DNA of 42,620 nucleotides from Zoogloeaceae bacterium (lineage in GTDB: Bacteria > Pseudomonadota > Gammaproteobacteria > Burkholderiales > Rhodocyclaceae). Under the pieces are notes generated by a model that saw only the letters and a program-made list of their open reading frames with translations, made no database searches and had not been told where the DNA came from. Numbering within the stretch: the stretch's first letter is position 1; every line of letters starts with the position of its first letter. The stretch lies in the NCBI GenBank assembly GCA_031267345.1, contig JAIRZG010000162.1, forward strand, positions 1 through 42,620, read 5' to 3'. Below are positions 1 to 42,620 of this stretch, in pieces. The translations under genes and the position numbers were made by a program.

Positions 1-383
1 CCTTCCTTTGCGGCAAGGCAGCCTTGCCCATTGATGGAAATGAGGATGGATTCACGCTGGCGCAGGCCGCCCAGGGCAAAATGTCCGTAGTTATCGCCAA
101 TCTCCCACGCCGACTGGTAAAAATCCCTGCCTTTGTCATAGTTTCTGGTCAGACCAAAGCCAAAAATACGGGTCAGGAGCGCGGAGGCTTCCCTGGCGAT
201 AACATCGTCATCAAGAATCGTCCCACCGTATAGCTGGTGCATCGTGTTTTCGTGAAAGGTCAAGCGCAGGGTATCGATGACGCAGCATTCAGATTCAGCG
301 GGAAGCCGCAGCATGTGTTGGACAACCTTGCCATCTCGCATAACAAGTGAGATTTTTTCAAAAACAGGATTCTGGAAAGTCAT
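1..383 (-). CDS. Replication initiation factor, Rep_trans (RstA/Nf-phage-like), 3'-truncated by window edge
   Basis: Hand translation from ATG 383 (SD GAGGGG): MTFQNPVFEKISLVMRDGKVVQHMLRLPAESECCVIDTLRLTFH...IFGFGLTRNYDKGRDFYQSAWEIGDNYGHFALGGLRQRESILISINGQGCLAAKEG. The ID.L..TF, FY..S, GG and G.GC motifs are typical of Rep_trans N-terminal halves. Confidence 0.8.
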   Translation of the reverse strand, partial: MTFQNPVFEKISLVMRDGKVVQHMLRLPAESECCVIDTLRLTFHENTMHQLYGGTILDDDVIAREASALLTRIFGFGLTRNYDKGRDFYQSAWEIGDNYGHFALGGLRQRESILISINGQGCLAAKE

Positions 384-547
384 GGCGTCCCCTCTGATTG
401 GTTGTGGTCGACCGTTCCCCCGTGTTTACTGTGGGGGGGGTCAGTCATCGCGGCGTCGGCGCCGGTCATCCTCACAAGTTCCGTGTGACCAGCGCCGCCG
501 CCGCGAAAGTGGAAAATTATGAATTCGTCAAGTTCGCTGGCTTTCAT
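380..547 (-). CDS. Small hypothetical protein (55 aa) upstream of rep
   Basis: MKASELDEF...SEGTP*; TAAATG junction with the upstream ORF and ATGA overlap with the rep start. Confidence 0.4.
   Translation of the reverse strand: MKASELDEFIIFHFRGGGAGHTELVRMTGADAAMTDPPHSKHGGTVDHNQSEGTP
417..437 (-). other. Candidate rolling-circle origin (dso) hairpin
   Basis: Minus strand CCCCC-ACAGTAAACAC-GGGGG just upstream of rep; resembles GC-stem nick-site hairpins of Rep_trans replicons. Confidence 0.45.
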
Positions 548-649
548 TTATGACCCCGACAACTGCTGCGCAGCTATAATCACTTGCAGCATTTGATGAA
601 AGATGAAAAAACCCGATACAGCCCCCAGGATGAACATCAGAATGGGCAT
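548..649 (-). CDS. Small membrane peptide (33 aa; frame open upstream to 901)
   Basis: MPILMFILGAVSGFFIFHQMLQVIIAAQQLSGS, one hydrophobic helix; stop directly followed by the next ATG. Confidence 0.4.
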   Translation of the reverse strand: MPILMFILGAVSGFFIFHQMLQVIIAAQQLSGS

Positions 650-691
650 GAAGTAGTGGAAGGATTCACGAAACCCGAAAAGGGAAAATTC

Positions 692-886
692 ATGAACGGA
701 TTGCTTGCCTTGAGCAACATTAGCGGTAACGTCCTGATCGCGGCAGGAAGCGGCGCCATCGTCATCATTTATGGAATCCTGATTACCAGCCGCTGGCAAA
801 AGTGGTGCAGGGATACAGAACTCGCAGCACTGTTCATTGCCGCCATCATCGCCTTGGGCTGGGTGTACCTGTGCGTCAGCGCGTAG
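692..886 (+). CDS. Small two-TM membrane protein, counter-oriented within the element
   Basis: MNGLLALSNISGNVLIAAGSGAIVIIYGILITSRWQKWCRDTELAALFIAAIIALGWVYLCVSA; two hydrophobic segments; purine-rich leader. Confidence 0.5.
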   Translation: MNGLLALSNISGNVLIAAGSGAIVIIYGILITSRWQKWCRDTELAALFIAAIIALGWVYLCVSA

Positions 887-1076
887 CTGCATCATCTTCA
901 TGCCCCCCGATCACATGCCCGACATGCGGCACTACATCCGTTTGACGCATGGCCTCCACCTCAACCAATATCCATTGCGATGTCGCTACCGCAAAGTAAA
1001 ACCCGGCGCCAAACATCACTACTCCCGTCAAGGTCGGGAGAAGCTCTACAAATACATCCTTCAAATTTGTTTGCAT
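876..1076 (-). CDS. Small single-TM protein (66 aa)
   Basis: SD AAGGA before ATG 1076; TM segment LLPTLTGVVMFGAGFYFAVA. Confidence 0.5.
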   Translation of the reverse strand: MQTNLKDVFVELLPTLTGVVMFGAGFYFAVATSQWILVEVEAMRQTDVVPHVGHVIGGHEDDAATR

Positions 1077-1095
1077 TTGACATTTCCTTGACCAG

Positions 1096-1236
1096 TCATG
1101 GGTTGACCTTCTCGCAGATGAAGTTGCCCGCCGCGATCTCTTTTTCGATCTCCCAATGCAGGAGGTAGACGCCAAAAATGCTACCGGCAAGAAATGCCAG
1201 AAGGATGAGCAGAGGGAGGAGGAGAGGACGGGGCAT
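1096..1236 (-). CDS. Small single-TM protein (46 aa; alternative start 1299)
   Basis: MPRPLLLPLLILLAFLAGSIFGVYLLHW... hydrophobic helix. Confidence 0.45.
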   Translation of the reverse strand: MPRPLLLPLLILLAFLAGSIFGVYLLHWEIEKEIAAGNFICEKVNP

Positions 1237-1340
1237 CTCGCATAAAATGCTTAAGGCATGAAAGAATGGACGCTTGACGGCAGAAATTTTGAGTATCATT
1301 AAAAATTTCCTTCTGACAGGTGAGATTCATGAAAGCGCGA

Positions 1341-2339
1341 ATGAATACCTTGACAAACCTGATAATTCAAATTGCATTTATAGCTGTAGCCATTTTCCCG
1401 GCTCAAAACTCGATAGCTCATGCGGATGTGTACATTTGCATAGAAAAAGGGGAAAAAACGATCTCCACAAAACCCTGTCCCAATGCCGCAACAACGCAAA
1501 ATAATGTTCCTTCGCCAAAACAAGAACGAGCTTGGAAAGCTTTTTACAAAGCGCCTGATGAATGCAAAGGCATGAAAACAAATGTCAGCTTGATTACTCG
1601 ATGTATGGAACACAGACAACGAGAGCGGGCAAAATTTAATGTCATGTGGGACAGCGACAAGGATCAAAACATCACATCGCCTGAAGCTATCACACAGAAA
1701 CAAGCCAAAAACAGCCCATTGTCCGGCTTGACCGATCATGTTGTTGGATTGCTTATCAAAATGGGTGCATGGGTTGTTGGCGCGATCCTGCTTTATGCTT
1801 TGGCTATATTCTTGCTCAAACGATACGGAAATATTCAGAGTGGCAACCATTGGGGTAGCGGACAAAGCAAAACCGGATGGCTCGACCGACTGATCCCAAA
1901 ATACATGGACAGATTCAAGTTGCTGGACACTTGGGAAACCGATCTCTACGTCAAATTGACCAGCATAATGCCCGGCCTGATCGTATTCGCCCAAGTCAGC
2001 CTTCCACAAATGCTCTACATCAAAGGCGCTCACGCGCGGCAACAGATGCGGCAAATAGGGCATATGTCCGTGGACTTCCTCATATGCCGGAAAGACGGAA
2101 ACGACATCAAAATGATCGCCGCTATCGAACTCAACGGAGCCAGCCACACGCGAGCCGACAGGCAACAGGCGGACGCGCTCAAAGAAAAAGTGCTGGAAGA
2201 GGCCGGGATTCCATTGATCGTGTATGACGTTGAAAATATGCCGGACGCCGAGACGATCAAAAAGCATGTAGCAACCGCGCTTATCGCTCGTAAACAGTAC
2301 GAGGCCGAGCGAGACGCACGGTGCGGGAAAAACAAATAA
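1341..2339 (+). CDS. Signal peptide + DUF4124-like periplasmic domain + TM + DUF2726 domain protein
   Basis: Signal ...SIAHA|DVYICIEKGEKTISTKPCP; TM WVVGAILLYALAIFLL; DUF2726 motifs VFAQVSL, SVDFLIC, AIELNGASH, DALKEKVLEEAGIPLI. Confidence 0.8.
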   Translation: MNTLTNLIIQIAFIAVAIFPAQNSIAHADVYICIEKGEKTISTKPCPNAATTQNNVPSPKQERAWKAFYKAPDECKGMKTNVSLITRCMEHRQRERAKFNVMWDSDKDQNITSPEAITQKQAKNSPLSGLTDHVVGLLIKMGAWVVGAILLYALAIFLLKRYGNIQSGNHWGSGQSKTGWLDRLIPKYMDRFKLLDTWETDLYVKLTSIMPGLIVFAQVSLPQMLYIKGAHARQQMRQIGHMSVDFLICRKDGNDIKMIAAIELNGASHTRADRQQADALKEKVLEEAGIPLIVYDVENMPDAETIKKHVATALIARKQYEAERDARCGKNK

Positions 2340-2391
2340 AAAAGCAAAAGCCGCTTGTTTACAGGGTTTGAATTGCATTTTGACGCCATCC

Positions 2392-2458
2392 GTTAGCACG
2401 ACGCTACTTATAGCACCGTGCTAACTGCGTTGTCAACACGCTATAAAAAAAATATACT
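2392..2458. promoter_or_regulatory. Divergent promoters with palindromic operators
   Basis: TAGCAC-C-GTGCTA (2411-2423) and related TAGCACGACGCTA (2394-2406). Leftward TTGACA (2436-2431)-18-TATAAG with TG extension; rightward TTGTCA (2430-2435)-17-TATACT (2453-2458). Confidence 0.65.
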
Positions 2459-2476
2459 CAAACAGGAGGTCACATC

Positions 2477-2746
2477 ATGGAACTAAACGAGATCATCACA
2501 ACGGCAGCGCGCAGGCTGAACGTTAGCCAAAGCAAACTTGCCCAAAGAATCGGGATGCACGCGCCATCCTTGACACACGTCATAAAAAAAAGACGGCAAC
2601 TGACGGCGGAAGCGGCGATTGAACTGTCAGAACTGACAGGGATGAACGCCAAACAAGTCTGGCTTGCGGCGCAAAGATACTGGCGCGCCCGAGACGATTC
2701 GAACGTCCGACCCCTGCCTTCGGAGGGCAGTACTCTATCCAGCTGA
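2477..2746 (+). CDS. XRE/Cro-like HTH repressor; C-terminus encoded by the antisense tRNA-Arg
   Basis: SD AGGAGG; [30 protein letters not shown]; the last 21 residues ([21 protein letters not shown]) and the TGA lie inside the tRNA. Confidence 0.8.
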
Positions 2747-2757
2747 GCTACGGGCGC
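2681..2757 (-). tRNA. tRNA-Arg (anticodon CCG)
   Basis: GCGCCCGTAGCTCAGCTGGATAGAGTA CTGCC-CTCCGAA-GGCAG GGGTCGGACGTTCGAATCGTCTCGGGCGCGCCA; 77 nt with encoded CCA. Confidence 0.97.
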
Positions 2758-4905: not shown

Positions 4906-5652
4906 ATGAGTTTCTTGCAATCCTTATTTACCCGCTCGCAAGTGCGCGCTACCGTTTTGCGCGCCGAAAACATCACTCCACGGATGCGTCGCCTGGCATT
5001 GGGCGGCGTGGCGATCGCCGACTGGCTGCAAGCGAACGCGGCAAGCGTCAACAAACCTGCCGCTTGGGTCAAGGTCACACTGGACGGGCGTAGCGGACGC
5101 GGCTACACCCTGCGTCGCGTCGACACGGAGGTGGGCGTTATCGATCTGGATTTCGTCCTGCACGGCGAAGGCGAAGGCAAGGGCACGGTCTCCGACTGGG
5201 CGCGGCTCACCCGACCTGGCGACGCGGTAGAAATCCAGGGGCCAAGAAACGGCGGCTTTCAGCTATTCGCAGATTCCAGATGGTTTTGGCTCGCCGCCGA
5301 CGCTACCGCGCTCCCTGCCGTCGCGCGCATTCTGGAAGTTTTGCCCGCGAATATCGAAGCGCACGTCTTTCTGGTCATCCACGACAGCGCAGAACGACAA
5401 CCGCTCAACTCGCTTGCCAGATTGCAGGTCGAATGGGGGTATTCGACCGTGCCGCAGCGTGATTGCATTCCGGCTGTTCGCCCGCTCACGCAATCTCCAG
5501 ATCTCGCCATGCCCGGTCAAGTCTGGATCGCGGGCGAAGCGGATTGGGTCAAAAGCTGGCGCGCGTTCTGGTTGAACGAGCGCCATCAAGACCGTCGCTA
5601 CGTGAACGCCAAGGGCTATTGGAAAGCAGGTGAACGCGGACATCGAGGATAA
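4906..5652 (+). CDS. Siderophore-interacting protein (ViuB/YqjH family)
   Basis: ITPRMRRL, RGYTLR, LDFVLHG, ADATALPA, VWIAGEA, KGYWK motifs. Confidence 0.9.
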   Translation: MSFLQSLFTRSQVRATVLRAENITPRMRRLALGGVAIADWLQANAASVNKPAAWVKVTLDGRSGRGYTLRRVDTEVGVIDLDFVLHGEGEGKGTVSDWARLTRPGDAVEIQGPRNGGFQLFADSRWFWLAADATALPAVARILEVLPANIEAHVFLVIHDSAERQPLNSLARLQVEWGYSTVPQRDCIPAVRPLTQSPDLAMPGQVWIAGEADWVKSWRAFWLNERHQDRRYVNAKGYWKAGERGHRG

Positions 5653-6282
5653 GCGGATAGCGCGGCGCAAACCGCGCAAGCTCCCGCGACAGTTCCGCGC
5701 CGAACACACGTTGCCGTCATTCTGGAAGCGGCGGCGCGCGTTCTGGAAACGCAGGGGTTGTCAGGACTGAACACTAATCGGGTTGCCCAGCGCGCCGGGG
5801 TCAGCATTGGTTCGCTATATCAGTATTTTCCGGGCAAGGACGCGCTGATCGTGGCGCTGATCCGGCGCGAGCGCGACGCTTTTCTTCAATAAGCGCAAAG
5901 CGCCTTGCTGGAGCCGGACGGGCAAAAGGCGCTGCGATGTTTCATTGCCGCCTCCGTGCACCAGCAATTACGCCGTCCCGGCCTCATGCGCCTGCTGGAT
6001 TTCGAGGAAAGCCGCCCCGCCATCGCCCAGGAAATCGCGGAATCCGGCGCGGCCTTCCTTGACCTGTTGCGACAAATTCTTTCCCGCGCCGACATTTCGC
6101 CGCCCACGCATATGGAGACGACCATCGCCGACCTGATCGTCATCGTGTCGGCGCTAATCAACGCGGCAGGCGAACAGGATGAAACCGACCGCCGCGACCT
6201 CGAAGGCCGGGTGGGACGGGCGGTATTCGGATATCTGGGCGTTCAGGAGCCAGAGGTCTTTTCATCAGCAACCCCGATCTGA
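5630..6282 (+). pseudogene. TetR/AcrR regulator pseudogene
   Basis: RKLPRQ.RA, then a frameshift near 5710, then ILEAAARVLETQGLSGLNTNRVAQRAGVSIGSLYQYFPGKDAL, then in-frame TAA 5890-5892, then the C-terminal domain (ORF 5905-6282). Confidence 0.85.
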
Positions 6283-6531
6283 ATTTCACTGCCGCCACCG
6301 CGCGTCAGGACAAAACGATAGCCATATGGCGTATTGCGCCATCGTTCATGGTTGGAAATGCCGCGCTGCAAGCCGTATTGCCCAATAAGCATAATATTTG
6401 GCATGACTCGCGTCGGGGTTGTTTAATGTTGTTTTGTGGCGTCAATAGCGCGCTACGATTTGTATCAAACGAGAACTCCTTTTAAAATGATCGCATTTTC
6501 CCTGAGACAAAAAACGGCGGACATTCACATC

Positions 6532-7584
6532 ATGTTGAACCGAAAGACGGAACGTGTTCCTTCAAAGCGGAAAAAATGGCTTGGGCTGGGGTTGATGGCG
6601 GGTATTGTTCTGGTGTTGGGCGTTGTTTATTTCCATTTTCAGTTTTCCGGGGCGGTGGAGCCGACAAGGGAGGTTTTGCGTAGTGAGGCGCCAGCAGCGC
6701 CCGGCGCGCATTTGGATGAGCCGTTGTCGCCCATTCGTGAACGGACGACATTGAACGCGCAGAAGGTGGCGTTGGGGAAACTCCTGTTTCATGACGCACG
6801 GCTTTCCCGTGATGGCAGCGTCAGTTGCGCCACCTGTCATGATCTGGCGACGGGCGGCGTAGATCGGCGCGCCCGTTCGCTTGGCGTGGACGGACAGGAA
6901 GGCAACATCAATGCGCCGACGGTGTATAACGCCGTCTTCAATTTCCGTCAATTCTGGGATGGACGCGCGGACTCTCTGGAAGAGCAGGCGGCAGGGCCTC
7001 TGCTCAATCCGGTGGAAATGGCGAATACTTGGGACAAGGTGCTGGCGACCCTGCGCGCGGACGCGCGGATGGTGTCGTCTTTTCGCGCCGTTTACCAGTC
7101 GGAGCCCACTGCGGCGATGGTGCAGGACGCCATTGCTGAATTCGAGCGTTCGCTGGTGACGCCTTCTCGCATGGATCGCTGGTTGCTGGGCGATATGAGC
7201 GCGCTCACGGATGAGGAACTGGAAGGGTATCGTCTTTTTCGGCGGCATGGCTGCGTGGCCTGTCATCAGGGCGAAAATGTCGGTGGCAATCTTTTTCAGC
7301 GTTTTGGCGTGATGCAGGACTACTTTGCCAACAAGGAAGCGACGGCGGCGGATCTGGGGCGTTTCAATGTGACGGGGCGCGAAGAAGACAAACATGTGTT
7401 CAAGGTGCCCAGTCTGCGGAATGTGGCGCTGACCCCGCCGTATTTCCATGACGCTTCGTCGAATTCACTGGAAGACGCGGTGGCGCGCATGGGACGTTTT
7501 CAATTGGGAGTGGATTTGTCCGGAGAGGATATTTCGTCTATCGTGCTCTTTCTACACACCTTGACCGGGGAGAAACTGCAATGA
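6532..7584 (+). CDS. Di-haem cytochrome c peroxidase (CCP_MauG family), membrane-anchored
   Basis: CATCH and CVACH; LGKLLFHDARLS, NAPTVYNA, QFWDGRA, FKVPSLRNVALTPPYFHD. Confidence 0.92.
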   Translation: MLNRKTERVPSKRKKWLGLGLMAGIVLVLGVVYFHFQFSGAVEPTREVLRSEAPAAPGAHLDEPLSPIRERTTLNAQKVALGKLLFHDARLSRDGSVSCATCHDLATGGVDRRARSLGVDGQEGNINAPTVYNAVFNFRQFWDGRADSLEEQAAGPLLNPVEMANTWDKVLATLRADARMVSSFRAVYQSEPTAAMVQDAIAEFERSLVTPSRMDRWLLGDMSALTDEELEGYRLFRRHGCVACHQGENVGGNLFQRFGVMQDYFANKEATAADLGRFNVTGREEDKHVFKVPSLRNVALTPPYFHDASSNSLEDAVARMGRFQLGVDLSGEDISSIVLFLHTLTGEKLQ

Positions 7585-33263: not shown

Positions 33264-34256
33264 GTGGTTACCCGGGAGACAAGCGTTTTGCCGCTCACAC
33301 AGCTTTACGCCTTGATTGGCGAGGACATGCAGGCCGTGGATGCCGTGATCCGGCGGCGGCTTTATTCCGAAGTGGCGCTGGTGCGTCAGGTGGCGGAATA
33401 CATTATCGTCGGCGGCGGCAAACGGATGCGTCCGGCCTTGGTGCTGCTGGCGGCAGGCGCGTTGGGGTACACGGGACGCCAGCGACATGAACTGGCGGCA
33501 GTGGTGGAATTCATCCATACCGCCACCCTGTTGCACGACGATGTGGTCGACGCATCCGATCTGCGGCGTGGGCGGGAGACCGCCAATACCGTGTTCGGCA
33601 ACCCCGCCAGCGTGCTGGTGGGCGATTTTCTTTATTCCCGCGCCTTTCAGATCATGGTGCAGGTGGGCAATATGAACATCATGCAGGTGTTGTCGGACGC
33701 GACCAACATCATCGCCGAAGGCGAAGTGCTGCAAATGATGAATTGCCATGACCCGGATGTGGATGAGGCGAATTATTTGCAGGTCATCCGCTACAAGACC
33801 GCCAAACTCTTCGAGGCAGCGGCGCAACTGGGGGCGATAGTGGCGGGCGCGTCGCCGGAAACAGAGCGGGGTCTGGCCGATTACGGCAGGTATCTGGGCA
33901 TGGCCTTTCAATTGGTGGACGACGTGCTCGATTATTCCGGGCAGGAAGCCGATACCGGCAAGCATCTGGGCGACGATCTGGCGGAAGGCAAGCCGACGCT
34001 GCCGCTGATTTATGTCATGCAGCACGGTACGCCGGAAGAAGCCGCCAGCGTGAAAAAAGCCATTGAAAATGGCGGACGCGATGATTTTCCCGTGGTGCTG
34101 GCGGCGATTCGTCGTTCCGGCGCGCTCGACTATACCCGGCAATGCGCGCGCAATACCGCCGAACAGGCAAGGACGGCGATTTCTCTCCTGCCGGATACAA
34201 ATTACAAAAAGACTCTGCTAGAATTAACCGTTTTCGCGGTTGAGCGCTCACACTAA
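33264..34256 (+). CDS. ispB: Octaprenyl diphosphate synthase
   Basis: GGKRMRP, LLHDDVVD, FQLVDDVLD; usual neighbour of tRNA-Pro. Confidence 0.93.
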   Translation: MVTRETSVLPLTQLYALIGEDMQAVDAVIRRRLYSEVALVRQVAEYIIVGGGKRMRPALVLLAAGALGYTGRQRHELAAVVEFIHTATLLHDDVVDASDLRRGRETANTVFGNPASVLVGDFLYSRAFQIMVQVGNMNIMQVLSDATNIIAEGEVLQMMNCHDPDVDEANYLQVIRYKTAKLFEAAAQLGAIVAGASPETERGLADYGRYLGMAFQLVDDVLDYSGQEADTGKHLGDDLAEGKPTLPLIYVMQHGTPEEAASVKKAIENGGRDDFPVVLAAIRRSGALDYTRQCARNTAEQARTAISLLPDTNYKKTLLELTVFAVERSH

Positions 34257-34265
34257 GTAAGGCTT

Positions 34266-34679
34266 TCAACCCCTCGGAGTGTAGCTCAGCCCGGTAGAGC
34301 ACTGCGTTCGGGACGCAGGGGTCGCAGGTTCGAATCCTGTCACTCCGACCAACACCTCTTTTGCGTCGTTTGACGCAAATCCCGCGATTGTTATGACAGT
34401 TGCCAGCGCAATGCTGGCGGCTTTGGCGTGTTCGACAAAAGGGAGCCAGAAGGCGCGTTTTTCGGGTTTTTTCTCGGTCGCCAGTTCGCTGGCGGCGATG
34501 ACCTCCACTGGCTCAACATTGAGTAATTGAGCAAGTTTAATGCAAGCGTCGTTTGGCAAGCCACGTCGGTTGCTTTTCGCGTCTGTTAGTGCGTTTCCTT
34601 GTAGATTCAGGTAGTTTGCAAGGGCAAAACGCCCACCTAGGTGTCCTTCGCCTATTTCAATGTAATTTTTTAGTTTCAT
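34266..34679 (-). CDS. Inovirus repressor-like HTH protein (DUF3693/RstR-like); C-terminus spans the whole antisense tRNA-Pro
   Basis: SD AGGAG; FALANYLNLQGNALTDAKSNRRGLPNDACIKLAQLL...EKRAFW; ends VGVTGFEPATPASRTQCSTGLSYTPRG with its stop in host DNA upstream of the tRNA. Confidence 0.8.
   Translation of the reverse strand: MKLKNYIEIGEGHLGGRFALANYLNLQGNALTDAKSNRRGLPNDACIKLAQLLNVEPVEVIAASELATEKKPEKRAFWLPFVEHAKAASIALATVITIAGFASNDAKEVLVGVTGFEPATPASRTQCSTGLSYTPRG
34275..34351 (+). tRNA. tRNA-Pro (anticodon CGG)
   Basis: CGGAGTGTAGCTCAGCCCGGTAGAGCA CTGCG-TTCGGGA-CGCAG GGGTCGCAGGTTCGAATCCTGTCACTCCGACCA; 77 nt. Confidence 0.97.
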
Positions 34680-34691
34680 GTGATTTTCTCC

Positions 34692-34789
34692 TTGACAGCA
34701 CACAAATCTGTGTGTTAGCGTTGTTTTGCACACAAATTTGTGTGCTGCCGTTTCTCTCAAATTCTATCGATTCGGGGGAATTTTAGCAA
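34692..34789. promoter_or_regulatory. Face-to-face promoters with two 18-bp operators
   Basis: GCACACAAATCTGTGTGT (34698-34715) and perfect palindrome GCACACAAATTTGTGTGC (34728-34745). Rightward TTGACA (34692-34697)-18-TAGCGT; leftward TTGCTA (34789-34784)-17-TAGAAT (34766-34761). Confidence 0.75.
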
Positions 34790-34848: not shown

Positions 34849-35349
34849 TCATTCTTTACCGATTGCCGCTCTAATTTCCTTCGCGCTCGGAAGTTTCCCT
34901 GCGTAGAACTCCAAGAGCTTGATTCCTGCGGTTTTCAGGGCATCGCGCTTGAATTCGTCGCTTTTCTGTCGGTCTTTGCGTTTGTGCGTCGAATCTTGCA
35001 GTTCGATGGCCATCACGGTAGAGGCGTCTTCCTGAATGACAAGGAAATCTACGCTTTTCATCCGAATTTGGTTCAAAGCACTCCAGCCACCTTTCTTGTT
35101 TTTGTCATACAGAAAGCTGCTCATCTGCACTTGGGCGAGTATCAGATACTCGGGCAGTGCTTCGATCAGACGAAGGAAGAGGGCTTGTTCGACTTGCGAC
35201 ATAACATGCTTGGGCGCGTATTCACTTTGGTTGTCAATTTCAAGGGATTGTTTGTCTGGGGACTTCTTGGCAACCAAGGTGGCAACCAAGGCAAGAAAGG
35301 CGACTGCCGCCAGTATGAGGGCAATCAGTATGACATTCGACATTTCCAT
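34849..35349 (-). CDS. N-terminally anchored DUF2726 protein
   Basis: TM VILIALILAAVAFLALVATLV; ILAQVQM, KSVDFLV, AIELQDSTH, DEFKRDALKTAGIKLL. Confidence 0.85.
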   Translation of the reverse strand: MEMSNVILIALILAAVAFLALVATLVAKKSPDKQSLEIDNQSEYAPKHVMSQVEQALFLRLIEALPEYLILAQVQMSSFLYDKNKKGGWSALNQIRMKSVDFLVIQEDASTVMAIELQDSTHKRKDRQKSDEFKRDALKTAGIKLLEFYAGKLPSAKEIRAAIGKE

Positions 35350-35468: not shown

Positions 35469-35795
35469 ATGAGCATCAAAGTTGAAGTTAGAAGCGAGGA
35501 GTTGGACGTCAAGAGCGGTGTCAGCCAGAAGAGCGGCAAACCATATAGCATCAGGGAGCAGTCGGCGTGGGGGTTTTTCGTTGATCCGCATGGCAACCCG
35601 CACCCGTACCCGCAACGTGTGCGGTTGACGCTGGCTGATGAACAGGAGAAAGCGTATCCGTGCGGTTTGTACGAACTGGCGGATACGAGTTTTTACCCTG
35701 ACCAGTACGGGCAGATCAAGATTCGAGCGAAGTTGCAGCCGTTGCAAACCACGGCGGCGGCGGGCAAGAAGTCGGTTGTTGCGGCGGTTGCTTGA
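35469..35795 (+). CDS. Phage ssDNA-binding protein (gene V-like)
   Basis: SGVSQKSGKPYSIREQ, AYPCGLYEL..SF; SD AAGGAG. Confidence 0.9.
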   Translation: MSIKVEVRSEELDVKSGVSQKSGKPYSIREQSAWGFFVDPHGNPHPYPQRVRLTLADEQEKAYPCGLYELADTSFYPDQYGQIKIRAKLQPLQTTAAAGKKSVVAAVA

Positions 35796-35805
35796 TTCTC
35801 TGACC

Positions 35806-36093
35806 ATGAGCAATACGCATTTTCGCCGTAGTCCATATTTTGCCTGGTGGTATAGCGCCGCCAGCAATGGCGAAGATGCGCATTGCTGCAATTGCACTTT
35901 TGCTTTTGAACATCCGGCGCGTGGCGGCCTGGCTTGCCGCTTGTCGAAGTATAAAAGCGGTGTTTCGCCGCATTCATGCTGTATCAATTGGTTGGATACA
36001 GTGACAAACAGCAGTCCGCTTGATGAAATCCGCGCTTTGAACTTGAAAGCGCGGCTTGCGGCGGCGGATGGATACGCGAAGGGGCGAGCATGA
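35806..36093 (+). CDS. Cys-rich phage hypothetical protein (95 aa)
   Basis: Fills the gap between ssb and rep; ATGA overlap with rep; HCCNC...C...CC motif. Confidence 0.55.
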   Translation: MSNTHFRRSPYFAWWYSAASNGEDAHCCNCTFAFEHPARGGLACRLSKYKSGVSPHSCCINWLDTVTNSSPLDEIRALNLKARLAAADGYAKGRA

Positions 36094-37157
36094 AGACGGC
36101 TGGCTTGCTTATCGACTGGCTAACCTTACGGATACCGCTGTCTGATAAGCAACTCGGCTTTGACCTTCATCAGCGCGTCATGAATGCCAGAATGCATATT
36201 CAGTGCTTCGATAGCGAAGGCGTTAAAAAGTGGGAGAAAGCGTCATTGGATTTTGACGCCTTGCGCTCCGATACGGTCGGTCTGTGCTGGATGATGCAGG
36301 GCGATGGTGTGCAGTACTACCTTGTCATTGGTGGATCACCTGCGAGCCTGAATCATGGCTTAAACGTTTTCGGGGACTTGGACATCAGGGCAGGGGCGGA
36401 AACGCTCATCAGGGCAGCGCAAAGGGGGCTACAGGCCATTTTGCCGCCTTTGGACAGGTGGCAATGCCGTCGCATCGACATAACGGGAAATTACCTGTTG
36501 CCAGACGCATCCAGTGTCAAGCAAGCCCTGCGGATGTTGATGAATACGGATGCAGCGCGGCGCAGGGCGACCAGCGCGAAAAGAGGCGGCGATACGGTCA
36601 TGTGGAACACGACCAGCGACTTGACGAAGGGCAAGGCATATCACAAGGGCCCGCAGCTTCTCTTTTCTTGCCGTCGTCATAATCTTGACGTGACGCCGGA
36701 ACAGATTGAGATGGCGGACAGGTTGTTGAGGTTGGAGCATACGCGCGGTGCGCGTTGGTTTCGTAGAGAGGAAGAGGATGGGCGGCGCTGGCAGGATTTG
36801 ACTTCGGAGAAGCTGGAAGAATGCTATTTGGAATTTTTTGAGCGATTGGTGGAAGGCGTGGAGGTGAAGGACATGGACAGGATGACGCTTGTAGAGTTGA
36901 TACAAAACTCGAACAACATAACAGAGGGTCGCGCGGAAGCGGCTTTTACGACATACCGCAACATCAGGGCAGATGGTCTGGAAGTCGTCAAGGGCTTTAT
37001 GGCGAAGTCGACTTTTTATCGTCATCTGCGCTATTTGCGCAATGTAGGGATAACCGATTCTGATTTGTATAACAGCAATGTTTTTCCGATTCGGCCTGTA
37101 CGGATTGTGCTGGCTCAACCTGTATCCAGTTGGGAAGACATTCGGAGGGTTGCGTAA
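36090..37157 (+). CDS. Phage replication protein, gene II/X (CRI) family
   Basis: IDWLT, GSPA...GLNVFG, RIDITGNY, KAYHKGPQL, LLRLE, STFYRH. Confidence 0.9.
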   Translation: MKTAGLLIDWLTLRIPLSDKQLGFDLHQRVMNARMHIQCFDSEGVKKWEKASLDFDALRSDTVGLCWMMQGDGVQYYLVIGGSPASLNHGLNVFGDLDIRAGAETLIRAAQRGLQAILPPLDRWQCRRIDITGNYLLPDASSVKQALRMLMNTDAARRRATSAKRGGDTVMWNTTSDLTKGKAYHKGPQLLFSCRRHNLDVTPEQIEMADRLLRLEHTRGARWFRREEEDGRRWQDLTSEKLEECYLEFFERLVEGVEVKDMDRMTLVELIQNSNNITEGRAEAAFTTYRNIRADGLEVVKGFMAKSTFYRHLRYLRNVGITDSDLYNSNVFPIRPVRIVLAQPVSSWEDIRRVA

Positions 37158-37444
37158 TGGTCTGGTGCGTAAATTCTTATCATGATTTGGGCGGCGGGAA
37201 TTTTACGGGCGCTGTCCATGATGAAAGGCAAGCAATATCTGCGAATTGTGAATATGTCCTTGTTACGCCTCAAGAATATTTTTCGGCGTTGAATGGTTCA
37301 GATACGTCGAGTGATGATGATCCTGTTTTGTTTGATTCTGCTGTTGGTGGTCAGATATTCGGTTTGTTTTTTTCAATTACGGTTGGACTTTATATTTTTT
37401 CAAAGTGCATTGGTTTGGTGATAAAGGCTGTAAAGGAATTTTAG
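37157..37444 (+). CDS. Minor virion protein candidate (pVII/pIX position)
   Basis: TAATG overlap with rep; C-terminal TM; CEYVLVTPQEY motif. Confidence 0.7.
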   Translation: MVWCVNSYHDLGGGNFTGAVHDERQAISANCEYVLVTPQEYFSALNGSDTSSDDDPVLFDSAVGGQIFGLFFSITVGLYIFSKCIGLVIKAVKEF

Positions 37445-37506
37445 TAATTTGCTGTTCGGCAAATGTGCGTCAGGTCACTTTACCTGATTTTTGAGGAGTT
37501 ACAAAA

Positions 37507-37719
37507 ATGAACTTGATTAAAAAGGTTGTCGCTGGCCTTGGTGCTGCCATTGCGTCTGTATCTGCTTTTGCTGCCGGTCCCGATATGTCGACTTTGACGG
37601 ATTCGATTGATTTTGGCACAGTCACTACGGCGATTCTGGGCGCTGCTGGCGCGTTGATTGTGGTCTATATCGCCTGGAAAGGCGCAAAGATCGTTCTGTC
37701 TGCGGTCAAGGGCGGTTGA
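37507..37719 (+). CDS. Major coat protein (pVIII)
   Basis: SD GAGGAG; signal ...SAFA|AGPD, acidic N-terminus, TM, basic C-terminus. Confidence 0.92.
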   Translation: MNLIKKVVAGLGAAIASVSAFAAGPDMSTLTDSIDFGTVTTAILGAAGALIVVYIAWKGAKIVLSAVKGG

Positions 37720-37724
37720 TGTGA

Positions 37725-37776
37725 CGGTGTGGCGGCTCCCGCGCGGAATGAAATGAGCACGGAAGCCGCCACACCG
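37725..37776 (+). other. Long hairpin after the major coat gene
   Basis: 13-bp perfect stem CGGTGTGGCGGCT / AGCCGCCACACCG plus an imperfect inner stem. Confidence 0.7.
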
Positions 37777-37795
37777 AAACCTTTTAGGTGATTTC

Positions 37796-37879
37796 ATGAC
37801 TGCTAATGATTTTTGGTACTTGCTGATAGCATTTTGGGCTATCGTTTGCGCTTGGGCGGTGGTGGAGGGGTTGAAGTGA
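37796..37879 (+). CDS. 27-aa hydrophobic peptide, probable minor coat protein (below the ORF-track cutoff)
   Basis: SD TAGGTG; MTANDFWYLLIAFWAIVCAWAVVEGLK*; GTGA overlap with the pIII start. Confidence 0.7.
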   Translation: MTANDFWYLLIAFWAIVCAWAVVEGLK

Positions 37880-39519
37880 AAAATTTTCTTATCATTTTCT
37901 TTTTTGTTTTTTCGCGCTTGGCTTTTGGTCAGGCTTTGCCTGTTCCTGATCCTTCGCCTTTTCTTGTTCCTGCATCAACAGCATATTTTGCGCCTTCGGC
38001 TTATATAGCCAATGCGCCGTCTTTTACACAGCCTGGCATTGTTGCTAATTATGCGTCTAGTTATTTACAGCCTTTGCGTGGAGTTCCCGGTCTTTCGTTA
38101 GTCGGTGTTGCTGCTGGCGCTCTTTTGCTCTGGACGTTATCGGATGCTGATAAATCAAATAATGATTATCAGGTTACGCGCGTTTCTTTTAGTCCATATG
38201 ATTATCAGGGTTTTACGCTTTCTCGCGCTAATAGGGAATATAAAATTATGGAGAATCATTATCCAGATAAATGCGCGAATGGAGAATATAATTGTTCACG
38301 TTCACTTTCTCTCCCTTTAGCTGATTATTATGTTGAAATAAATGGTCGCATTGTTAAATATAATCTCATTTTGTCAAAAGAAAACGGACAATCTGTTAAT
38401 TTACGGGAAGATTCTTTTAATACATTTGATGAAATATGCACTTTTTATAAAGGTACTACGATTGGCAATGTAGATGATGAAACTTGTGCTGGTTATGTTA
38501 TTCCTGATTATTACAGGGAGCAAGGTTATACAACAGGGGCTTTTCATGCTAGTGAAGATGGAAATTATTGTCCTGTTCCGTTTACTCTTTTTACTAGCGT
38601 TGACTATATGGAGGGAATGCCTCAAGAATTTATTGATGGTGTAGTCGCGGCTTCTAATGGTTATACAATGAATGTATGTTATGTTAAAAATGTAAGAAGA
38701 TTAAGCGATGGTATTTGCGATTACGTGAATGGGAAAGGCGCTTTTTACACAGAGGATATAGATTGTAGAGCTTATTACGATGGTGGCGCGTCTGCTGCTT
38801 CTACCGTATATCGTGAAGGTCATGTCGTATCCTATGGCAAAGATACGGAAACGGGGAAAATAATTATTCATGATATATCTTCCAATGTATCGCCGGATTT
38901 AAGAAGTTATCGCTATGTTATTTCAGAGGAAACGGGAACAGGTTTACATGTTACAGAATTGGTCATTAGCACATCTGGGAAAATTGTTGCTGCGGAAAGT
39001 TTTGACATTGAGGGCGCATCTATTGCTTTGCCCTCTTCTGTTCCTGCTTCCAAGTTGGCGTCAGGTGTTTATCCTTCTGCTGAAAATTCACCTGCTGTAC
39101 GCTATAGCGCAAGTCCTGCCACGAATCCCGGCACAAATCCCGGTACTGATCCAGATCCGAATCAGAATGACAATAATGAGCCGATACAGTGGCCTGATGA
39201 TTATGCGCGGCGTGGTGAGGCGGAAGATGCGGCGGACAAAATTATTGATGCGTTTTCGGGCGAAACGGAAGCAATAGATTTAACTGCTCCCGTGGATAGT
39301 TTCAATGATAATTATTTTAGTGGTACATTCGACGGTTTGACTGCATGGCGGTTGCCGCCGCATGTAAGTCAATGTCCAACAGGTTCTTTTTCTGTTTTCG
39401 GAAATAACTACACAATAGATTCACATTGCGTACTGATGGAAAGTTATTTTAATGATTTGAGTTCGGTGATGGTGGTGTTGTTTTCGTTGCTTGCTCTGTT
39501 TATTGTTTTGAAGGCTTGA
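37876..39519 (+). CDS. Adsorption protein pIII-like
   Basis: GTG start with signal peptide ...LAFG|QAL; Cys-rich N-domain; NPGTNPGTDPDPN linker; CP...C motif and C-terminal TM. Confidence 0.85.
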   Translation: MKNFLIIFFFVFSRLAFGQALPVPDPSPFLVPASTAYFAPSAYIANAPSFTQPGIVANYASSYLQPLRGVPGLSLVGVAAGALLLWTLSDADKSNNDYQVTRVSFSPYDYQGFTLSRANREYKIMENHYPDKCANGEYNCSRSLSLPLADYYVEINGRIVKYNLILSKENGQSVNLREDSFNTFDEICTFYKGTTIGNVDDETCAGYVIPDYYREQGYTTGAFHASEDGNYCPVPFTLFTSVDYMEGMPQEFIDGVVAASNGYTMNVCYVKNVRRLSDGICDYVNGKGAFYTEDIDCRAYYDGGASAASTVYREGHVVSYGKDTETGKIIIHDISSNVSPDLRSYRYVISEETGTGLHVTELVISTSGKIVAAESFDIEGASIALPSSVPASKLASGVYPSAENSPAVRYSASPATNPGTNPGTDPDPNQNDNNEPIQWPDDYARRGEAEDAADKIIDAFSGETEAIDLTAPVDSFNDNYFSGTFDGLTAWRLPPHVSQCPTGSFSVFGNNYTIDSHCVLMESYFNDLSSVMVVLFSLLALFIVLKA

Positions 39520-39520
39520 T

Positions 39521-39820
39521 ATGGCTATTCCTTTACTTGCTCCTTTGCTTTCGTCGCTTGTTTCGTGGATTTTCCGCGAAGTTGTCGTTAAGTTTTTAAT
39601 TTTTACTGGCCTATATTTGCTCATTGCGTTTCTTGTACCTTATGCTATTGGATTTTTGCTTCCGTTTATTGGTACTGGTGATTTGACTAGTGCTTTTAAT
39701 GTGGTGTCTCCCGGTGTGTGGTTTTTTCTTGATTTTTTCCGTTTGGATTTTGGCGTTCCGCTTCTGATTTCGGCTTTTGTGGCGCGTTTCTTGATACGTC
39801 GCTTACCAGTTATAGGCTGA
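39521..39820 (+). CDS. Minor coat protein pVI-like (DUF2523)
   Basis: 99-aa hydrophobic protein ending RFLIRRLPVIG; between pIII and Zot. Confidence 0.85.
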   Translation: MAIPLLAPLLSSLVSWIFREVVVKFLIFTGLYLLIAFLVPYAIGFLLPFIGTGDLTSAFNVVSPGVWFFLDFFRLDFGVPLLISAFVARFLIRRLPVIG

Positions 39821-39824
39821 TGCA

Positions 39825-40943
39825 ATGTCTATTAAAGCTTACACAGGCCGTATGGGTAGCGGCAAAACCTATGAGGTTGTGTCGGTCGTGATCCTCGGTG
39901 CGCTGGCTAAAGGTCGGCGTGTTGTGAGCAATGTTGCAGGTCTGGATTATGACGCGATGGCGGAGCTTTTGGCGGCTGATGGCGTAGATGCGGATTGTAT
40001 CGGCTCATTGGTGCAAGTACAGCATGATCAGGTCTTGTCTCCTGACTTCTGGCGGACGGATGAAACGGAAAAGACGGGCGGCGCTGCCTTCATCTTGCCT
40101 GGTGATTTGCTTGTTCTTGATGAAGTCTGGCGTTTCTGGGAAGGGTTTGCGGACAGGAAGATGCCGCAACAGGTGATGAATTTTTTTCGGATGCATCGGC
40201 ATTTTGTCGATGCTGAATCTGGCTTTACCTGTGATGTCGCGCTCATATCGCAAGATGTCCTTGATATTGCGCGGCGGATGCGGTCAGTGATTGAGGAAAC
40301 TTATCACATGACCAAGTTAACGGCGGTGGGGGTGGCTAATCGTTATCGAGTGGATGTTCACGTCGGGGCGCGTATCACAAGAAAGCCGCTTCGGTCAATA
40401 CAAAGAGCATATGATAAACGGTATTTTCCGCTCTATTCTTCACATTCGCAAAAGGATGCCAGCGGCGCGGATGCGAAAGAGGACAACATCGACGGGCGCG
40501 GGAATGTGTTTAAAGGGTTGCTGTTCAAGGTCATTTTGCCGCTTTGCGTTCCTGTTTTTTTGTATTGTGTCTGGTCGCTTTATCGTTTTTTTAATCCTGC
40601 TGTGTCTGATGCCGCCCTTCCCTCTTCTGTCGTGAGTCAACGGCCTTCTGGTGGCCTTCCTGCGTCTTCTGTTGTTTCTGATGGTGTTTCCACGCGCTGG
40701 CGGCTGGTGGGTGTCGTGGTTGATGCTTCTGGTCGTCAGTCGTGGATGATCGCTGATGGAGCGGTAATACGTGTGCTGTACGACCCGCCAGCGGTCAAGT
40801 TTAATGGCTGGTCGATGTCGATTAAGACGCCGGAAGGTGAAATGGTCACGACGTGGAGCGGTCGCTCTTCGGCTTCCGGTCTGTCTTTGGGGAATTCATC
40901 AGGCAGTCAGGCGCCGGTCAGATATGAACGAGGAATGCCGTGA
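39825..40943 (+). CDS. zot: Zot/pI morphogenesis ATPase
   Basis: GRMGSGKT Walker A, LVLDE Walker B, MHRH, ISQD, single TM. Confidence 0.93.
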   Translation: MSIKAYTGRMGSGKTYEVVSVVILGALAKGRRVVSNVAGLDYDAMAELLAADGVDADCIGSLVQVQHDQVLSPDFWRTDETEKTGGAAFILPGDLLVLDEVWRFWEGFADRKMPQQVMNFFRMHRHFVDAESGFTCDVALISQDVLDIARRMRSVIEETYHMTKLTAVGVANRYRVDVHVGARITRKPLRSIQRAYDKRYFPLYSSHSQKDASGADAKEDNIDGRGNVFKGLLFKVILPLCVPVFLYCVWSLYRFFNPAVSDAALPSSVVSQRPSGGLPASSVVSDGVSTRWRLVGVVVDASGRQSWMIADGAVIRVLYDPPAVKFNGWSMSIKTPEGEMVTTWSGRSSASGLSLGNSSGSQAPVRYERGMP

Positions 40944-42175
40944 TGATACGTTTTATATGTTGTTTACTGTTTTCTTGTTCTGTTTATGCGCAACAAGAAG
41001 ATTTAATTTCTTTTCGCTTTCGTGATGTGCGTGTATCTGACTTGATACAGGTTGTGTACACTGATATTTTGAATCGTCCATATGTCCTTGATCCTGCTGT
41101 TGCGCATTCTACCGATTCAATAACGCTCGACCTTCCCCGTATAACTTCGGCGCAATTCGATCATCAATTACGCTTATTATTGGATTCGATGAATTATCAG
41201 ATAATGGATGTTAGCGGTATTGCATTCTTTTCTAAAAAAAAGGAAGGCGAAGAATTATTAACGCCTTTTGTTTATCGTCCATTATATCGTTCTGTTTCTT
41301 ACCTTACAGATTTAACCAGCACGATTTTTAAACGTAATAATTTTACAACACAAAGAAGTGTACAATTACCAGAGGGGGCGGTATTCAATAATGGTATTGA
41401 TACTGGAACTAATGCTTTTTCTATGATCAGTAAAGAAGATACTGACGTACTTGTATTTAATGGCACGTTGCAGGATATTGAGAAGCTGAAAAAGTTGCTT
41501 GTTGAGCTTGACAGGCCGATAAGCGAGGTGCTGGTTAAGGCGATTGTTTATGAAGTGCGAAACGATACAGTAGAAACTAATGCGGTATCTTTGGCTATCG
41601 GATTGTTAAAATCTGTTGATGGTGCCGGAATCAGGATTAACAGCATTCCAGATGCGGAAAACTCCATAAAAATTCATACGTCCAACATACAGGCGGTTTG
41701 GTCTGCTTTATCTGGTGATTCTCGCTTTAAACTTGTTTCTTCTCCCACTGTACGTATTAAAAGTGGTGGCAAAGCTCGTTTTATGGCAGGTCAGGATGTG
41801 CCGACTTTGGGAAGCGTTTCGTATCCAACGTCTGGTCAATCTGTGCAAAGTATTGACTATAAATCATCCGGTGTGATTTTAGAGCTTACTCCGGAAATTC
41901 GGGAATCTGTAATTGAGTTAAACATCAGTCAGCAAATATCAGACTTTACCAGTACATCAACGGGCGTTAATACATCTCCGACCTTGCTAAAGCGCGAGTT
42001 GAAGACATCTGTTATTGCAAATGACGATGAGATTATAATCCTCGGTGGTTTAGAAAAAACGACGGATTCAAAAATGACTGAAGGCATATCGTTCTTGCCC
42101 GCTTTTTTGCGTTCCAAAAATGATACGAACGAACGAACGGAAATAATGATGTTGCTTCATGTCAAGAGAATATAA
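40940..42175 (+). CDS. Secretin pIV (phage export channel)
   Basis: EVLVKAIVYEV, VSSPTVR, GVILELTP, IILGGL secretin motifs. Confidence 0.92.
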   Translation: MMIRFICCLLFSCSVYAQQEDLISFRFRDVRVSDLIQVVYTDILNRPYVLDPAVAHSTDSITLDLPRITSAQFDHQLRLLLDSMNYQIMDVSGIAFFSKKKEGEELLTPFVYRPLYRSVSYLTDLTSTIFKRNNFTTQRSVQLPEGAVFNNGIDTGTNAFSMISKEDTDVLVFNGTLQDIEKLKKLLVELDRPISEVLVKAIVYEVRNDTVETNAVSLAIGLLKSVDGAGIRINSIPDAENSIKIHTSNIQAVWSALSGDSRFKLVSSPTVRIKSGGKARFMAGQDVPTLGSVSYPTSGQSVQSIDYKSSGVILELTPEIRESVIELNISQQISDFTSTSTGVNTSPTLLKRELKTSVIANDDEIIILGGLEKTTDSKMTEGISFLPAFLRSKNDTNERTEIMMLLHVKRI

Positions 42176-42215: not shown

Positions 42216-42506
42216 TTATGCTCCGAACATTTTTATGAGTATTACTGCAAGGGCAACGGAACCGATGATTGCGCCGGTGTTCCATTTGATGATTTCGGCT
42301 TTTGTCTCTGCTAGCTTGATTTCAAGTTGGTTTAAGTCTTGTTTTATGCTTTTTTCCAATTCTTTCAAGTCGTGTGTTGTTGCGACTTCTGCGACTGTCA
42401 TAACGTCTTTCAAGGCGTCGCTGATCCCTTCGGCCTGTTCTGGTTTGAATCCTTTGGATTGCAGGTTTTTCACAAATTGCAGTGTGTCGAAAGTGATGGC
42501 GGTCAT
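42216..42506 (-). CDS. DUF1640/CCDC90-like coiled-coil membrane protein
   Basis: FDTLQFVKNLQSKGF..EQAE, VATTHDL, IIKW + C-terminal TM; SD CAGGAG. Confidence 0.85.
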   Translation of the reverse strand: MTAITFDTLQFVKNLQSKGFKPEQAEGISDALKDVMTVAEVATTHDLKELEKSIKQDLNQLEIKLAETKAEIIKWNTGAIIGSVALAVILIKMFGA

Positions 42507-42620
42507 GATGTTCTCCTGTGATGTGGTGAAGTCTAGCACGATCTGTACTGGTCGTGGTCGTGATGCTGGCTTGTTGCTGTTCTCCTTCGTGGTCAGGTGC
42601 TGGTTGTAAAACTTCTAGCC

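Follow-up and report, generated by a model that had tools for sequence, protein, structure and literature searches.

The window analyzed here is the whole 42,620-nucleotide stretch and constitutes the complete contig C194 of genome G000. Its right-hand part is occupied by an Inoviridae-like prophage adjoining an intact tRNA-Pro gene (Table 1). The prophage carries a Zot-like pI ATPase, a rolling-circle Rep, an ssDNA-binding protein, and small coat proteins, the genes by which this group is recognized, and open frames are retained in its core genes. Its repressor-like ORF (34679-34266) encloses the whole tRNA-Pro(CGG) on the opposite strand and terminates at a TGA (34268-34266) that lies in host DNA. 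The first-pass annotation had proposed that the repressor frame crosses all of tRNA-Pro in antisense and stops in host sequence, and this is borne out by both the translation and the tRNA coordinates. The encoded protein matches phrog_638 (E 5e-11) and the HTH group phrog_4441 (E 6e-8), a Pfam scan of it returned no match, and its top homologues carry the labels Zoogloeaceae or Rhodocyclaceae. Protein structure prediction gives residues 1-90 as a confidently modelled helical domain, followed by a coil tail. A Foldseek search with this model returned nothing at E ≤ 0.001, and its weak top rows were Cro/CI/XRE HTH domains. The hydrophobic segment encoded at 34377-34421 (residues 87-101) resembles an internal signal peptide.

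Table 1. Features of the window, with coordinates, strand, and basis or remark.
Feature	Coordinates	Strand	Basis or remark
HTH repressor-like gene, integrated form, 137 aa; phiRSS0 ORF13 homologue	34266..34679	-	translation, PHROG matches
Parts of the HTH repressor-like protein: HTH domain ~1-80, hydrophobic helix 87-101, tRNA-derived tail 110-137			
tRNA-Pro(CGG), intact, att junction	34275..34351	+	kept behind ispB in related genomes
Putative att common core, anticodon loop to tRNA 3' end	34307..34351	+	P0002 and L169; inferred for this prophage
Host-derived end of integrated repressor: last 13 codons and stop (tRNA 5' half, leader)	34266..34306	-	tail predicted disordered
Control region on upstream side of repressor: palindromes and promoter-like sites	34692..34789	.	
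Polyprenyl synthetase gene (ispB-like), host, precedes tRNA	33264..34256	+	
DUF2726 accessory gene	34849..35343	-	
Inovirus core: ssDNA-binding protein, G2P-type Rep, coat proteins, pIII-like, pVI, Zot-like pI, pIV secretin	35469..42175	+	
CCDC90-like accessory gene	42216..42539	-	contig end 42620 precedes any integrase or far att
Second HTH gene, same family, 89 aa, other element; antisense into tRNA-Arg(CCG) 2681-2757	2477..2746	+	

The left boundary of the prophage can be placed by comparison with related genomes. Of the listed matches to the ispB-tRNA segment, all but one lose similarity at the tRNA 3' end or no more than a few bases from it, the exception extending ~20 bases further, so phage DNA begins at the tRNA 3' end. 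Two of the three antisense frames across this tRNA-Pro are open, and a stop-free crossing of the tRNA is therefore unsurprising when taken alone. What goes beyond chance, as judged from sequence comparison, is the recurrence of tRNA overlap across homologous genes rather than the single crossing.

Recurrence was assessed in 81 distinct homologous genes from the fetched loci. A tRNA is overlapped by 22 of them (for 21 the best hit shows overlap with a tRNA or half of one, and L108 adds a tRNA-Lys). A further 31 have a dif-like motif at their end, as found by a regular expression that was set post hoc, has a background of 2.6% per 250 nt, and misses ends that are visibly dif-like; 24 have neither, and four are cut off. 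The tRNAs targeted are Pro(CGG), Arg(CCG), Val(CAC), Phe, Ser, and Lys, in both orientations. The first-pass annotation had named repressors that normally stop before the tRNA as one pattern speaking against its reading, and no homologue stopping short of an adjacent tRNA was found among the 81. Two repressors of genome G016 (L028 and L030) match the anticodon arm of tRNA-Val over a few bases before departing from it, and may represent integrations at secondary sites. In L046, L049, and L078, the repressor continues in frame into a 367-aa ORF that resembles, by eye, a ThiF-family host gene, a possible case of integration into a protein-coding gene.

The best homologue of the window repressor, P0002 (75% identical), offers a candidate for the natural attP form. 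It follows the antisense tRNA-Pro text in the same frame as the window repressor up to residue 124, which corresponds to the anticodon loop, and then continues with 33 different residues to a total of 157 aa, ending in -IALFA. When the 3' end of a tyrosine integrase gene on contig C140 of G000 is read in antisense, the frame matches this tail (67% over 36 aa, E 5e-10); the gene lies beside tRNA-Val, and its product belongs to PF00589. The order repressor, tRNA 3' half, back of integrase is the one expected on an excised circle, in so far as a junction can be read from one protein sequence. A protein search with the P0002 tail recovered P0002 itself only, and a scan of viral contigs for the antisense tRNA-Pro half gave 0 matches. 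At another locus, L169, the duplicated tRNA-Pro(CGG) end is 46 nt long and ends at the same anticodon loop, and no repressor runs across it. These data point to a crossover at the anticodon loop. Host DNA supplies only ~13 codons of the repressor, the 3' half of the tRNA likely being carried by the phage. The overlap is very probably genuine and the mark of an att site within the repressor gene.

The far end of the tRNA-Pro prophage was sought in the remaining contigs of G000. Neither a far att nor an integrase of this prophage was found there, and the duplicated tRNA-Pro 3' end that the first-pass annotation had expected was not recovered from G000 by blastn or by 13-mers. An 18-nt match on C116 and an ARAGORN 'tRNA-Pro' on C88 were both rejected as unrelated. 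No contig of G000 overlaps the right end of the window. In the two closest genomes this tRNA is followed by a host gene whose counterpart in G000 lies on C205, and no tRNA-Pro remnant was found beside that counterpart. The sole G000 integrase of the implied family is that of C140, for which no link to the tRNA-Pro prophage was found. The attP of this prophage is therefore drawn from its relatives. The lack of a far att in G000 and of a tRNA-Pro remnant at the C205 gene would also agree with the simple loss of a stop codon in a decaying prophage. However, tRNA-Pro is crossed in an identical frame by a G016 repressor only 33% identical to that of the window, P0002 shares this frame, no counterpart that stops short was found to the 22 tRNA-overlapping homologues, and the core genes have open frames. 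Simple stop loss is accordingly very improbable, and this reading is largely refuted by the sequences at hand. On C140 (positions 5191-6617), the tyrosine integrase gene converges on an intact tRNA-Val(CAC), and the gltX flank on C146 has a decayed tRNA-Val-like remnant, with a HigBA-like pair (named by eye) in place of a repressor; this third element (C140/C146) may have decayed.

Rebuilding attP in complete relatives extends the argument beyond P0002. In the main tRNA-type rebuild, all seven elements (six on one contig each, and G013 from two contigs joined) have a duplicated 3' part of the tRNA of 31-72 nt, exact. In all seven the free tail is changed and longer, the integrated and free lengths being 118->140, 124->185, 154->161, 118->196, 118->141, 137->184, and 139->186 aa. 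Zot-like genes were confirmed in L163, L165, L166, L033, L088 (Propionivibrio soli, a named cultured species), and L092, and a Zot-like gene could not be confirmed in L164. The tRNA-Val types vary, as the free form of G016 is shorter (112 vs. 115 aa) and that of G002 ends in -SERR. In L112 a serine resolvase accompanies a repeat of 25-28 nt. Among the dif-type rebuilds, five have a changed tail (L001, L064, L076, L099, L103) and two leave the protein unchanged (L089, L097). The rebuild of L093 was dropped because its 89% repeat is gapped and lies at a distance of 2.3 kb, and that of L108 because its repeat spans 13 nt; repeats in L046, L049, L057, and L078 were ignored as chance. The integrases of the family are short, at ~285 aa, and the repressor and integrase genes converge on attP in the complete tyrosine-integrase elements. 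In L113, an intact integrase is separated by ~4 kb of cargo, defence-like by eye, from an integrase fragment that lies beside the far att. The earlier proposal that attP sits inside the gene for the repressor and that the free tail differs thus holds in relatives, through P0002 and the rebuilt attP sites, and extends to the present prophage by inference.

The free tails share features that bear on a function. The antisense frame of the integrase seen in P0002 is used in five of the eight informative cases (P0002, L163, G013, G014, and L165), an informative case being one in which the repressor frame is known and the tail directly enters this integrase family. The other three (L166 and the tRNA-Val types of G016 and G002) use other frames. 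Frame reuse spans two tRNAs and both orientations, and four of the five frame-sharing free tails end in -LFA. The -AA end that had been suggested for the free form was not found, as none of the 13 tRNA-type free tails ends in -AA (four end in -LFA, one in -LMA, and the rest are varied); the tmRNA tag of the host ends in -FALAA. The close integrases end in -F or -L and bear no ssrA-like tag. Nonpolar residues fill the two final positions in 8 of 13 free vs. 1 of 12 integrated tails (an eye count made post hoc), and the corresponding value for the ends of random open runs is 12.6%. Synonymous identity is modestly raised in the last 25, overlapped codons of the integrase genes (0.43-0.49 vs. 0.34-0.37; permutation P 0.03-0.04). 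Integrase genes whose frame is unused (L176, L129) have the -FA end with its stop as well, so descent or DNA-level constraints on att could explain the -FA ends. The elements compared are also kin, which inflates these counts. Amphipathicity of the free tails was not above that of shuffled versions (P 0.07-0.49). Nonpolar C-termini attract proteases rather widely. For one of these, Prc, they are given as an attractant in a reference title (PMC9382460). These comparisons suggest that the nonpolar free ends, -LFA in four, may act as a degron.

Much of this would also be seen if the repressor gene overlapped the att site neutrally, its tail being free to vary. The tails do vary in length and frame, two of the three antisense frames across the tRNA are open in any case, the confident fold is limited to residues 1-90, some family members end near 94-100 aa, and two dif-type rebuilds are without change. 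Against this, the att site has remained inside the gene while the elements switched between dif and six or more tRNAs, and between tyrosine integrases of two families and a serine resolvase, when one stop codon would suffice to end the overlap, and the frame reuse and nonpolar ends likewise speak against neutrality. A neutral overlap is on balance unlikely, though it retains real weight.

In a further alternative, the switch acts at the protein level with no degron, both forms being active but in different ways. The repressor carries a signal-peptide-like hydrophobic helix, and the basic free tail could alter membrane topology, oligomer state, or targets, in line with hypothesis 1 of Yamada for phiRSS0. 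The net charge is +4 to +6 in 8 of the 9 free tails scored, and in predicted structures the P0002 tail forms a single helix (residues 121-156) whereas the integrated tail is a coil. A hydrophobic 15-mer (KD ≥ 1.5) follows the HTH in 34 of 46 homologues, including that of the window, often with PxxAxA next to it. However, the remaining 12 of 46 fall below this cut-off, and several tRNA-Arg and tRNA-Phe types have basic free tails with no hydrophobic segment by eye. Arg-rich text is expected of antisense frames of GC-rich genes, and the Arg-rich free tails may merely reflect this. Different roles for the two forms of ORF13 have been proposed (PMC3816273). The alternative is improbable by our estimate.

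The same convergent, overlapping layout in complete elements would permit control at the RNA level. On the circle, the transcripts of repressor and integrase would overlap by ~100 nt at their 3' ends and interfere, and integration would part them and set the repressor transcript against the tRNA promoter; retroregulation by sib of lambda is an analogy. Such a mechanism needs no reading frame across att, which argues against it, and we consider it quite improbable.

The reading that we prefer, a tail swap between the free and the integrated repressor, would operate as follows. In the free circle, the repressor would lose its last 13 residues and gain a tail of ~33 residues encoded antisense to the integrase gene, and this prophage should have, or have had, such an integrase beyond position 42620. 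The repressor would bind two upstream palindromes and shut off a rightward promoter. The basic tail with its nonpolar end (-LFA) would be read by a host protease, i.e., ClpXP/ClpAP, FtsH, Lon, or Prc, which would make the free form short-lived and leave the integrated form as the lasting repressor, and repression would thus not set in before integration. Precedents for this reading are BPs, phiRSS0 ORF13, and XacF1 ORF12, discussed below. The data moderately favor a functional switch of some kind in the tail swap. That it acts specifically as a stability switch, with a short-lived free form, is nearly an even question, on which we lean slightly toward doubt.

The control region contains elements that could serve such a circuit. 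Two operator-like palindromes (34698-34713 and 34729-34744) lie 30 bp apart upstream of the repressor, a TTGACA at 34692 on the plus strand overlaps the first of them, and a promoter-like site on the minus strand (34789-34761) is directed towards the repressor. Upstream palindromes, one or two and of variant sequence, were present in six of the eight repressor genes examined, the window's included (5 of 7 relatives). From one repressor to another, operator-like palindromes change along with the predicted recognition helix; the helix of the window repressor resembles that of L036, and so do its palindromes (34698-34744).

The layout is repeated in a second, prophage-like element at the left end of the window (1-2757), which comprises a Rep cut at the contig start, a DUF2726-like gene, and the 89-aa HTH gene. 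This HTH gene reads into tRNA-Arg, and 53 nt of the tRNA-Arg(CCG) junction are duplicated on another contig of the genome (G000:C117:15-67), giving a duplicated att; that contig ends 14 bases beyond. A DUF2726 gene lies directly upstream of the repressor in both elements (1935-2261 and 34849-35343).

Little is understood of how filamentous phages choose to replicate as episomes or to persist as a quiet prophage. The present set offers natural pairs of long and short repressors, operator candidates, and a candidate degron, in hosts that are not pathogens and include at least one named cultured species (L088), which makes the question directly testable. A bolder proposal, tentative and on present grounds rather doubtful, is that one inovirus repressor family carries a portable sensor of integration, namely a degradation tag written on the antisense strand of the last codons of the integrase. 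If true, the tag would be attached by excision and removed by integration, and it would have been kept in frame through changes of tRNA target and orientation. Proteobacterial ssDNA phages would then have evolved, on their own, a switch like that of mycobacteriophage BPs, with a C-degron other than -AA (-LFA). A caution for annotation is that the integration state determines which C-terminus such a prophage repressor has.

The first-pass annotation had held that such an arrangement was not described for filamentous phages, which does not stand, as an attP within a regulator gene has been published for ORF13 of phiRSS0 and ORF12 of XacF1. In the Ralstonia inovirus phiRSS0, attP(dif) lies inside ORF13, which changes from 156 to 130 aa upon integration, and a functional switch was hypothesized (Yamada 2013; PMC3816273); the layout is restated by Askora and Yamada (2015; PMC4471427). 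A test of this 2013 tail-change hypothesis was not found in the literature searched. The window repressor is homologous to ORF13 (26% over 107 aa, E 3e-13 pairwise), and phrog_638 is the best match for both proteins. The two also share the HTH, the hydrophobic segment, an att near the 3' end, a basic free tail, and a C-terminus altered on integration, the last seen here in relatives. Whereas phiRSS0 uses dif and host XerCD, the target here is tRNA-Pro, relatives encode an integrase themselves, and the free tail comes from that gene's antisense strand. ORF12 of the Xanthomonas phage XacF1 likewise has attP inside, and without ORF12 the prophage is unstable (PMC5666396). This ORF12 / Cf immunity determinant resembles the present system as a filamentous-phage regulator gene that holds attP and, in XacF1, stabilizes the prophage, but it differs in the use of dif/XerCD. 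The principle is thus already in print for filamentous phages.

Integration-dependent immunity is described for BPs, in which the switch has been put to the test, and for Clusters G, I, N, and P (PMC4557955, PMC9262239). Like BPs, the present system has attP in the repressor gene (in relatives and in the second element, and by extension in this prophage), a tRNA target, and a tyrosine integrase (seen in relatives, implied by the P0002 tail, and not found for this prophage in G000). The integrated repressor is the shorter and the free one the longer in both, BPs losing 33 residues and the P0002 free tail having 33. On the other hand, the BPs repressor and integrase genes are co-transcribed, whereas here they converge across attP in complete tyrosine-integrase elements, and both BPs proteins bear ssrA-like tags, whereas here no free tail ends in -AA and the integrases end in -F or -L. 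Here, moreover, the integrated repressor acquires 13 host-coded residues. The Pseudomonas Pf prophages (PMC7549136) and phiRSM are similar in being inoviruses with their own integrase and tRNA targets. In the account of phiRSM within PMC3816273, however, attP sits between the integrase and repressor genes and not within the repressor. The relevant passages on tRNA-integrating Pf phages (PMC7549136) and on Vibrio dif phages (PMC12715192) do not place attP in the repressor. No tRNA-integrating inovirus with attP in its repressor was found in the freely accessible literature searched. Since two defining features of BPs are lacking, the system fits best with the phiRSS0 ORF13 arrangement, as a version of it that uses a tRNA and the phage's own integrase. 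Its additions to that arrangement are the range of targets, a free form seen in nature, and a tail encoded on the strand opposite the integrase.
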